From: Ascidiella aspersa
Taxonomy: Eukaryota
Direction of reading: 5' to 3'
DNA: 64,000 nucleotides
Assembly (NCBI GenBank): GCA_963924565.1
Contig: OZ004609.1
Location: 28,830,001-28,894,000, forward strand
The notes beneath the pieces are model-generated. The model had not been told where the DNA came from and made no database searches. It saw only the letters and a list, made by a program, of their open reading frames with translations. Of the stretch, positions 35,701-38,700 are shown piece after piece (position 1 is the stretch's first letter; each line of letters starts with the position of its first letter). Both the position numbers and the translations under genes were made by a program.

Positions 35701-38700
35701 TGCCACCAAACTGTTGGTTGCTTTTTTATGCGAAATTAGGAATTTTAGAATGTTTACTTGACCACAGAATATTGCAATTGCGCAAAACGTTCAAAGAGTT
35801 AAAATTGTTTTTAGAGTTTACTAAGTTAAACCATGAACTATTTTGTAAATAAAAGAAGGAAATAATAAAAAACCGAACTTTTTTGGATGTATTCTAATTC
35901 TAACATAGAAATGACATCAAGCAAAAATTTGTGTTTCTTTCTACAAGGTCGTACGATCTTACCGACGCTCGGTCAGGAGTCCGATACGAGGTTCGAATCC
36001 GACCCATTAAGGGGTCACTGAAAGGTCGCGCCACGCCCATCGTCTTCGTGTCCTTGGATGGAGAAGGTGAGTAGAACAAAGTGCTGGGCACTGCTTTAGC
36101 CCGACTCGCTTTTACGACGTCCGATCGTTGTGTTTTACACAGTTTGAAAGTGCCTCCGTGCGTCTTTTTGCGACTTTTTTCAATGTACAACGGTGAACGA
36201 CAGTCGATTGCATCGATTCGGTGCTACATCGCTGTAAACACGTGTTTGCTTAATGCCTGCTAGAGGCAAGTGCGCGCGACTGACAAAGAAAATTTCGTAA
36301 AAACAATGTAGAACTGTGTTAGCTAACATGTCGCACATGCTCATGGCACGCTAACAGGCAAATGTGATCAATACCGGATTTGGCAAGAAGATAGAAAACC
36401 AATGCGTTTAACTTTTCCATCTCACATGTCATCATTTTTGAACATGTTAAAACAATTAGTGATGATTAGTTGTCGTTTGGAAATATTCGACTGACAAAGA
36501 AAAACTACAAAGTTGTAGATGACTTAGTTTAGTGTTTGAAGTGGCAGAAATTGAAATTTAATTAGTAAAACATCCTTTTTCTCTTTTACAACATGTGTAA
36601 GCTGCTAAAAAAACACCATTTAACTCTTTCCAACACGTTTAAGAGTTAACGATTCAGTTGCTGTTAGCTCAGAATCACGACTTTTTTGTGATGCAGCGGT
36701 ACGACAAACTATAAATAAAAGCAAACCGAACACAGAACTGCAACCAGGATAAAAGCACCCGCGACAATTTTGTATTTTTATATGCCCTTTTTTACAGAAA
36801 TCACGCCTCAGCGTCCAGCCATTTACTTGCAACGAATCGACGACGACGACTCGGCGGTGATGGTCAACTGGGCGACACCTAGTGACATAGCTGACGACCG
36901 CATCACCGGCTTTACGGTCCGCTGGCGTTCGTCGGACGGCAAGTACCGCGAAGCGGTCAACCTTAACGGATCCGAAACCGGAATCGTGCTGCGCCATCTT
37001 GCGGGCGATAAAAAGTTCTTGATTTCGGTCACCTACTACACTTTGCTCGGTGAAGGCGAGACGAGTCCTGAGACAGCGATTGATCTTGGAGGTAACGTAT
37101 GCCTATTAATATTAACGGATATGATTACGCTCGATATGTGGAATTAAGTGTTAGCTAAAGATATAACTGATTTGCCCTCACCTAAGCGAACACACTAGGG
37201 AAAGAGTCGACTCAAAACAGAAAAAAAGTTATTGAGTTATAAGTGACTATATAGTACATGGAATTAGGAAGGGGAAAATATATTTTTGCGATTAAGTTAG
37301 GTAATGAGTATCAAGTGGTTATTAGTACTTTATAAAATTATCTTCACCCTAGTAAAACTGCCAACTTGCAAGAGTAAAAACAAGAAAATAGTCCTCGATC
37401 GCCATTCTGTCTTAATCGAGTGCATAAAATAACTTAATTTTCTTATACAGTTGCATTTACTTTTCGCACTTAATTAAACTGTTATACCGATAATTTGCTT
37501 TTTTCAACATGCGGAATTTCACGGTATATATTTACTTTACAAATTCGCAGCTCCGACCACCGAAACGCCAGAAGGCGGCTTCGTCGAAATGATCCAAAAG
37601 CAGCCGGCCATTCTGGTCGGCCTGGCCGTTGGCCTCATCGCCCTGGTGGCCATCACGATTGTGGGCGTGTGTTACTACAGAAAGACGCGCAGGAACCGCA
37701 AAGCGCGTGGATTACACGGTAGGTTGAATGCTTGTATTGATCTTCGTTGTGTGGTAGCATGCCGTGCATTTTTTCTTTGAATGTCGCACACTTAACTTCG
37801 CCAAAAACAACAACAAATCGATTCGACGCACCTGTTCTGTTTGCGTTGCGTATTAGAAGTAACATACTATAGCCTTGTGTAATAAAACGCCCGCGTTTGT
37901 GGTCTGTTTAGCTCAGGGGTGTCCAACACGAGGCACGCGTGCCAAATGTGTTTGCCTGATCAAATAAACAAATGTTTTCCATGTGTATATAAACGTTTTT
38001 TTGTAAAAAGGGCGATTTTAAGATTAAAACGAATTAGATACGAAACTTTGGTAAGGGAAGAAGGTATAAGATAAAAATTGTCACGCCGGCATGTTTGAGT
38101 TGGAAACACCTGGTTTAGCGTATTACACTCTATTTTGATTTTTCTGTCGCAACCAAACATCACTAACACAATAACGCAAAATTCGAACAGGGCCCAAAAA
38201 ATCGAATTTTGTTGGCTGTGATTTGCACGCCTGCTTTAAATCTTTACTGAAATTGAGCATTTAATAATTTCCACGCGCCATGAACTGATAAAAAGGCCGT
38301 TTTTTATCAAGCGATCGACACTAACACGAGTTTCTCTTGTCTTTTCTCCGCAGTGCGATCATTCAGCTTTACGCCGCAATCAGGTAAACGGATTTCCCTT
38401 TGTTTGCTCGATTGCGAAAGGTTTTTTGCATGTGTGTGATGACTTACGCGCGTTCACTTGTTTCACCTATAGCTAGTTGCCTGCTTGGTTACTTGTTTGT
38501 CCGTACTTAATCTTTTTTTGTTTTACATTTCATCATGTAAACTGTTAAATTATAGAAAAAATGCAATTCTTTGTTTTGTCAATCTTTTAACATACGGTAT
38601 TTTTTCAGTCAAGATAGATATTGTGATATATATACCCAGAGCTGTAGCCGTGTAAAGTGGCTAGTGGCTACTGCTCAATATGTAATAGCCGGTTGTACTT

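Follow-up and report, generated by a model that had tools for sequence, protein, structure and literature searches.

The closest described counterpart of the exon considered here is exon 18 of mammalian ROBO1, which we take to be 27 nt long and to encode VPSFTFTPT. In the available text of 10.1101/2020.04.12.035121, exon 18 is a neural-regulated microexon whose inclusion falls upon RBFOX1 knockdown (dPSI -0.265), and in that of PMC10834251 its inclusion is raised in ataxia mice; beyond its appearance in these two sets of splicing data, no functional study of it was found in the portions of the literature at hand. Primers for RT-PCR of mouse Robo1 exon 18 are listed in PMC6687390; they translate to KKRNGLT and SSGGRP and bracket the cassette position. 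According to the accessible part of the same study, loss of Nova1/2 leaves most alternative sequences unaffected, Robo1 exon 18 among them, with exon 6b and Robo2 exon 21 as the exceptions. Microexon 6b of Robo1/2 (Johnson et al. 2019, PMC6687390) tunes repulsion and is a model of how such an exon can matter; it is, however, another exon, NOVA-repressed and situated in the extracellular Ig3-Ig4 linker, and the exon 6b study is the one cited for its ROBO1 microexon in the excerpt of PMC12871342.

Some microexons reach cephalochordates, as stated in the available part of PMC12626424, and the Robo1/Robo2 duplication is dated to early vertebrates in that of PMC10084454. No literature on conservation of the exon in tunicates or amphioxus was found, and searches for the cassette peptides and for alternative splicing of Ciona Robo returned nothing on it in the texts available. 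It is not listed in the supplements of PMC12626424 (0 matches), PMC7821500 (reference mentions only) or PMC5703972 (other Robo events), and Robo1 and Robo2 are unmentioned in PMC4387716; the orthology may already be tabulated elsewhere (VastDB, Irimia 2014, Torres-Mendez 2019, bioRxiv supplements).

The window, that is, the whole stretch of 64,000 nucleotides analysed from the 308.6-Mb Ascidiella aspersa genome, contains most of a Robo gene (Table 1). Its exons are collinear with those of Ciona intestinalis Robo up to an identical C-terminus. The Ig1 domain is encoded ~32 kb upstream of Ig2, beyond the window edge (G000:C3:28817547-28818751), and the complete receptor comprises five Ig domains, three FN3 domains and one transmembrane (TM) helix, with Ig1-2 closest to Robo. 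ROBO1 and ROBO2 are the best PDB matches of the Ig2 exon; a protein homologue search with this exon alone gave no match among 9 candidates. In the cytoplasmic tails of both Ciona and window Robo, a diverged CC1-like stretch and a proline-rich CC2-like stretch are visible, and neither a CC0 pattern nor a canonical WIRS occurs in the tunicate tails inspected (P0155, P0306 and window 38879-44387).

Table 1. Features of the Robo locus around the microexon, in window coordinates (X3, spliced contigs; X4, reads, ~6% of the run sampled).
Feature	Position	Strand	Evidence
Robo gene, Ig2 exon to stop (Ig2-5, three FN3, TM, cytoplasmic tail)	20586..44387	+	Pfam Ig/fn3 matches; tblastn collinear with Ciona Robo
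Transmembrane exon, phase 1 end	37551..37718	+	X3 joints 37091>37551 and 37718>38879; 64% identical to Ciona
MITE-like element of high copy number, inserted in the intron that precedes the microexon	37914..38113	+	inverted repeats at its termini and an almost perfect 8-nt target duplication
Candidate bipartite QKI-type element ACTAAC-N4-TAAC, ~180 nt upstream of the exon	38162..38175	+	pattern match
CACTAAC, matching the branch-point consensus (branch A at -30) and the QKI core motif	38319..38325	+	sequence
Polypyrimidine tract and acceptor AG	38330..38353	+	acceptor used in one X3 contig
30-nt cassette microexon VRSFSFTPQS, phase 1-1	38354..38383	+	11/11 residues identical to Ciona Robo including the junction residue; isoform pairs
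Donor GTAAAC	38384..38389	+	sequence intact; use not seen in RNA of the Ascidiella runs
TGCATG, RBFOX-type site, +44 in the downstream intron	38427..38432	+	intact in an X3 contig, whose only difference is at 38434
In-frame stop on retention of the downstream intron	38437..38439	+	28 residues from exon start
Next constitutive exon	38879..39137	+	X3 and X4 joints

The TM exon ends with ACG|GTAGGT, the microexon is bounded by the acceptor ...CTCCGCAG|38354 and the donor CAG|GTAAAC, and its ten residues are read using the upstream G; when it is skipped, the frame is kept (H|G). The preliminary description of this DNA had proposed a skippable phase 1-1 exon directly after the TM exon, and every coordinate given there is right when re-read from the sequence. 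At 30 nt the exon lies outside the neural (SRRM3/4-type) microexon definition of at most 27 nt and fits the 30-nt definition found in the available part of PMC7821500. Enumeration of AG..GT phase-1 mini-exons in the same intron yields 36 candidates, 35 besides this exon; among the 17 of them listed, each having 12 or more pyrimidines, the motif scored only in the two that start at 38354. Furthermore, a contig of the second haplotype (X2, 38098-38752) carries six base differences, none of them within 38190-38526, which lends weak support to constraint on the exon region. The MITE-like insertion, presumably of a hAT-like family, has a summed contig depth of tens of thousands vs ~50 and is separate from the exon signal.

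Within tunicates, the cassette is readily traced. Ciona Robo P0079 contains VRSFSFTPQSG, identical to the window at 11/11 residues, compared with 64% identity for the TM exon and ~32% for the next exon; this unchanged peptide implies selection on the in-frame product. Two Ciona RefSeq isoform pairs (P0155/P0154 and P0153/P0152) differ solely by VRSFSFTPQS, and five of the seven cluster members that reach the region (out of 8) include the cassette while two skip it. In Clavelina lepadiformis (XP_076811092/XP_076811093) the orthologous 10-residue cassette reads VRTFSFAARS and has thus lost the TP; it is included in three and skipped in two of the five sequences informative here (5/6 cluster members). 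Both the Clavelina and the Ciona intestinalis cassettes (the latter XP_018673108/XP_078481503) are documented by automatic annotation only. The expectation that gene predictors would probably miss the exon was mistaken, as RefSeq/GenBank models of Ciona, Clavelina and amphioxus carry both forms; with the exon already in automatic annotations, its occurrence is less of a surprise.

Outside tunicates, amphioxus Robo carries VHSFIYTPA at the equivalent position (include/skip 12/12, 24/24). Its junction residues are S|V and S|G, with the first cassette residue then V or L as set by the upstream exon; those of Robo2 are A|V and A|G. Since the junction residues of the isoforms fix the phase, it is phase 1 in amphioxus and Robo2, deduced in both from protein isoforms; in the window phase 1-1 is read directly, and Robo1 is consistent with it. 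Two amphioxus sequences (P0256, P0260) have a second 10-residue cassette, GTVPNYLSTL, directly before the conserved one, and all four combinations are annotated.

Among vertebrates, the cassette of hagfish Robo2-like is VRSFTFTPA (include/skip 6/2; 8/11 matched the anchor), and hagfish Robo1-like has DPSFTFTPT in 6/6 full-length sequences, with the skip form not seen among them. Robo1 of the teleost Denticeps contains VPSFTFTPT (include/skip 12/1, 13/13); like ROBO1 exon 18, this segment directly follows the TM exon, preserves the frame and is skippable. V[RQ]SFTFTPA is present in 119 of the 120 best of 2,186 matches, in one of these as a model variant, and its carriers are Robo2 of lamprey, shark, bony fish, frog, lizard and turtle, with skip forms among the cluster members. 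The Robo2 cassette of these lineages and of hagfish shares position and phase with the window exon and is annotated in both isoforms, and no published study of it was found. The statement that vertebrate ROBO1/2 carry VPSFTFTPT stands for teleost Robo1 and needs amendment for Robo2, where the form is V[RQ]SFTFTPA and where none of the 24 mammalian sequences reaching the region has a cassette (28 examined; P0058, P0240-P0252, P0323-P0336). Judging from these sequences, the cassette was likely lost from mammalian Robo2. No bird or mammal with the cassette occurs among the best 120 of the 2,186 matches, possibly owing to lineage losses. The window exon differs from ROBO1 exon 18 in encoding 10 residues (30 nt) rather than 9, and in belonging to a pre-duplication Robo whose tail is without recognisable CC0 or canonical WIRS.

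In the outgroups the cassette was not found in 15 Ptychodera isoforms, one Glandiceps model, three echinoderm models and 32 protostome sequences (five clusters), a thin sample in which Glandiceps and the three echinoderms are single models. A quick tree that excludes the window's own protein places vertebrate Robo1 and Robo2 in one clade, with tunicate and amphioxus Robo outside it (SH-aLRT 100); tunicate Robo does not fall beside the vertebrates, being misplaced as a long branch. The tree agrees with the isoforms and with the peptide ranking given below in making the cassette older than the Robo1/Robo2 duplication, as the preliminary description had inferred. Because amphioxus has it as well, the cassette is likely older still, i.e. 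chordate-wide, and the most economical interpretation is that it arose once, no later than the chordate ancestor.

Turning to the splice signals, 18 of the 20 positions scored at the microexon acceptor are pyrimidines. Among 22 Robo acceptors, with boundaries placed by RNA joints or homology and one of them displaced by a single base, this is the highest count, the next being 16, which bears out its description as unusually strong. The CACTAAC motif, at -35 relative to the microexon, and the TGCATG in the downstream intron lie where they had been placed. The latter is the sole plus-strand copy between 20,000 and 45,000, and the microexon donor is the only one of 23 Robo donors with TGCATG inside 150 nt; its background frequency amounts to 25 copies in 144 kb, or ~2% per 100 nt, and the enrichment test is post hoc. 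To the QKI-type motif already noted, the present analysis adds the upstream element ACTAAC-N4-TAAC, which presumably fits the bipartite QKI motif definition; a loose form of this pattern has 9 matches in the window and is thus not rare. The genome encodes an RBFOX-type RRM, which together with UGCAUG in the proximal downstream intron is the sequence pattern of an RBFOX-activated exon, and it also encodes a STAR dimer domain. Pfam Fox-1_C and SRRM_C had no match in the genome and none in the controls, so that their absence is uninformative. The RBFOX-type RRM (L005 1226-1806, minus strand, G000:C1) is divided among three exons, and one intron separates the K from the G of RNP1, as in vertebrate RBFOX.

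Skipping and acceptor use are both demonstrated in Ascidiella RNA. The skip joint 37718>38879 has a depth of 12 in X3 and is found in 2 X4 reads, and the acceptor joint 37718>38354 has a depth of 5.8 in X3, in a contig (38353-38504) that crosses the donor without splicing and continues as far as 38504. A further intronic contig spans 38556-38743 (depth 3.65), so that the downstream intron 38384-38878 is represented at depths of 3.7-5.8, against 12 for the exons, after removal of the upstream intron. The mature inclusion joint 38383>38879 was seen neither in the X3 contigs nor in the X4 reads, ~6% of the run. Of the junctions proposed as a check, skipping and acceptor use were thus recovered and full inclusion was not; the latter is weak counter-evidence, given the low depth and the tendency of contigs to drop rare forms. 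The retained downstream intron, with its read-through stop, may mark either an intermediate that is detained or a transcript subject to NMD.

Taken together, it is highly probable that this is a frame-preserving Robo cassette matching those of amphioxus and vertebrate Robo1/Robo2, likely ancestral to chordates and likely included upon RBFOX binding to the downstream UGCAUG. The proposed homology with the vertebrate cassette is upheld by a common position, phase and motif, no difference in position or phase having been found (for Robo1 the phase is consistent only), and the tunicate, amphioxus and vertebrate cassettes very probably share a common descent. Separate origins within one shared ancestral phase-1 intron are very improbable: the peptides are indeed short, the tunicate one has 10 residues vs 9, and the intron has gained other cassettes, namely the second one in amphioxus and additional segments present in Robo2 models of hagfish and teleosts; against this, when BLOSUM62 is used to compare all 82,983 stop-free 9-mers in six frames with five cassettes from outside the tunicates, the 9-mer of the window exon has the top score (28.0; next 18.6), and the pattern V-x-[ST]-F-x-[FY]-T-P comes first even against amphioxus alone, as it does against jawed vertebrates alone. 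Identity amounts to 7/9 residues with hagfish Robo2, 6/9 with Denticeps Robo1 and 5/9 with amphioxus. The RNA data invite another explanation, in which the Ascidiella acceptor mainly feeds an intron-retaining transcript ending at the stop at 38437, which is detained, destroyed through NMD or translated into a tail-less Robo, full inclusion being rare or lost. The contig spliced upstream only and its intronic neighbour speak for it, as does the want of X3 coverage in several other introns, two having partial coverage of ~2. A partly spliced intermediate nevertheless accounts for the contig, the donor is intact, the intron contains neither AATAAA nor ATTAAA, and the selection implied by the peptide shared with Ciona concerns the in-frame product; this explanation is improbable.

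Control of the exon is less settled than its homology. RBFOX, putative from the motif, is the likely driver of the switch. In the proposed mechanism, the strong acceptor would be recognised by default and RBFOX at +44 would promote use of the donor, a scheme that is somewhat favoured; without RBFOX the microexon would be skipped or the downstream intron would linger, and the contig spliced upstream and unspliced downstream suggests the latter. Repression of inclusion by QKI, bound at the branch point or at the upstream element, is doubtful. There is a real, if smaller than even, chance that the exon is genuine and homologous yet controlled by factors other than RBFOX/QKI, e.g. the SRRM2/3/4 eMIC, or not tissue-regulated at all: RBFOX/QKI control of the tunicate exon is read from motifs, and in the available part of 10.1101/2024.09.17.613571 UGC is found at 74-79% of SRRM3/4 exons and is not strictly required. 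What argues for RBFOX instead is the lone TGCATG of a 25-kb span at an activating position, the absence of UGC between branch point and AG of the microexon, and, from the excerpts cited above, the response of vertebrate exon 18 to RBFOX1 knockdown (10.1101/2020.04.12.035121) and its constancy in Nova1/2 knockouts (PMC6687390).

The comparison narrows the conserved core of the peptide to V-x-[ST]-F-x-[FY], 13-18 residues past the membrane; the TP that follows is lost in one teleost Robo2 paralogue as well as in Clavelina. There is roughly an even chance that this core tunes the signalling or trafficking of Robo as a short linear motif, one that is probably phosphorylatable. The core is similar to the WIRS pattern (Phi-x-T/S-F-x-x), which binds the WAVE regulatory complex and is described in the available portions of PMC8096436, PMC10318009 and PMC12308364. 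Every lineage has retained x-[ST]-F at positions 2-4 of the cassette, so that positions 3 and 4 fit; position 1 is V (L in one amphioxus isoform class, D in hagfish Robo1-like), and no entry of the WIRS set in the part of PMC10318009 at hand begins with V. In the tails of Clavelina, hagfish Robo2-like, turtle Robo2 and the window exons, the cassette is the only WIRS-like string, the Ciona tail having one further V-type string, and non-mammalian Robo2 tails resemble tunicate Robo in containing no canonical WIRS. Identity of the cassette with the known ROBO1 WIRS was considered and rejected, as the proven motif is MKTFNS at 1050-1055, between CC0 and CC1; in the accessible text of Chaudhari et al., purified human tail no longer binds once this motif is mutated. 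A bolder proposal would make the cassette a WIRS-like docking site (V-x-[ST]-F) that is switched by splicing and has been maintained throughout chordate history, and whose inclusion would recruit the WAVE complex to tunicate Robo and non-mammalian Robo2 under RBFOX/QKI control; this is unlikely.

Few alternative exons have been traced from amphioxus through tunicates to vertebrates, and the present one lies in a central axon-guidance receptor, where it probably constitutes a splicing switch inherited from the chordate ancestor; in the ascidian gene its inclusion inserts ten residues on the inner side of the membrane, next to it. New here are the chordate-wide cassette series, the apparent loss from mammalian Robo2 and the pattern of cis-elements; no publication describing conservation of such depth was found. 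As tunicates have apparently one Robo, short introns and easy electroporation, regulation and function of the exon can be tested there without paralogue redundancy.

Several neighbours of Robo in the window were also observed. An open frame of 1,605 residues with internal repeats (54551-59365, plus strand) has no Pfam match. At 50934-52577 (minus strand), two intronless ORFs lie head to tail ~100 nt apart with an acceptor-like tract between them, an arrangement resembling a tunicate operon; they encode a DUF1075 protein, which we take to be FAM162-like, and an oxidoreductase of the zinc-binding-dehydrogenase family. Finally, an R7-family RGS gene with DEP, DHEX, GGL and RGS domains is present without introns at 48285-49730 on the plus strand.
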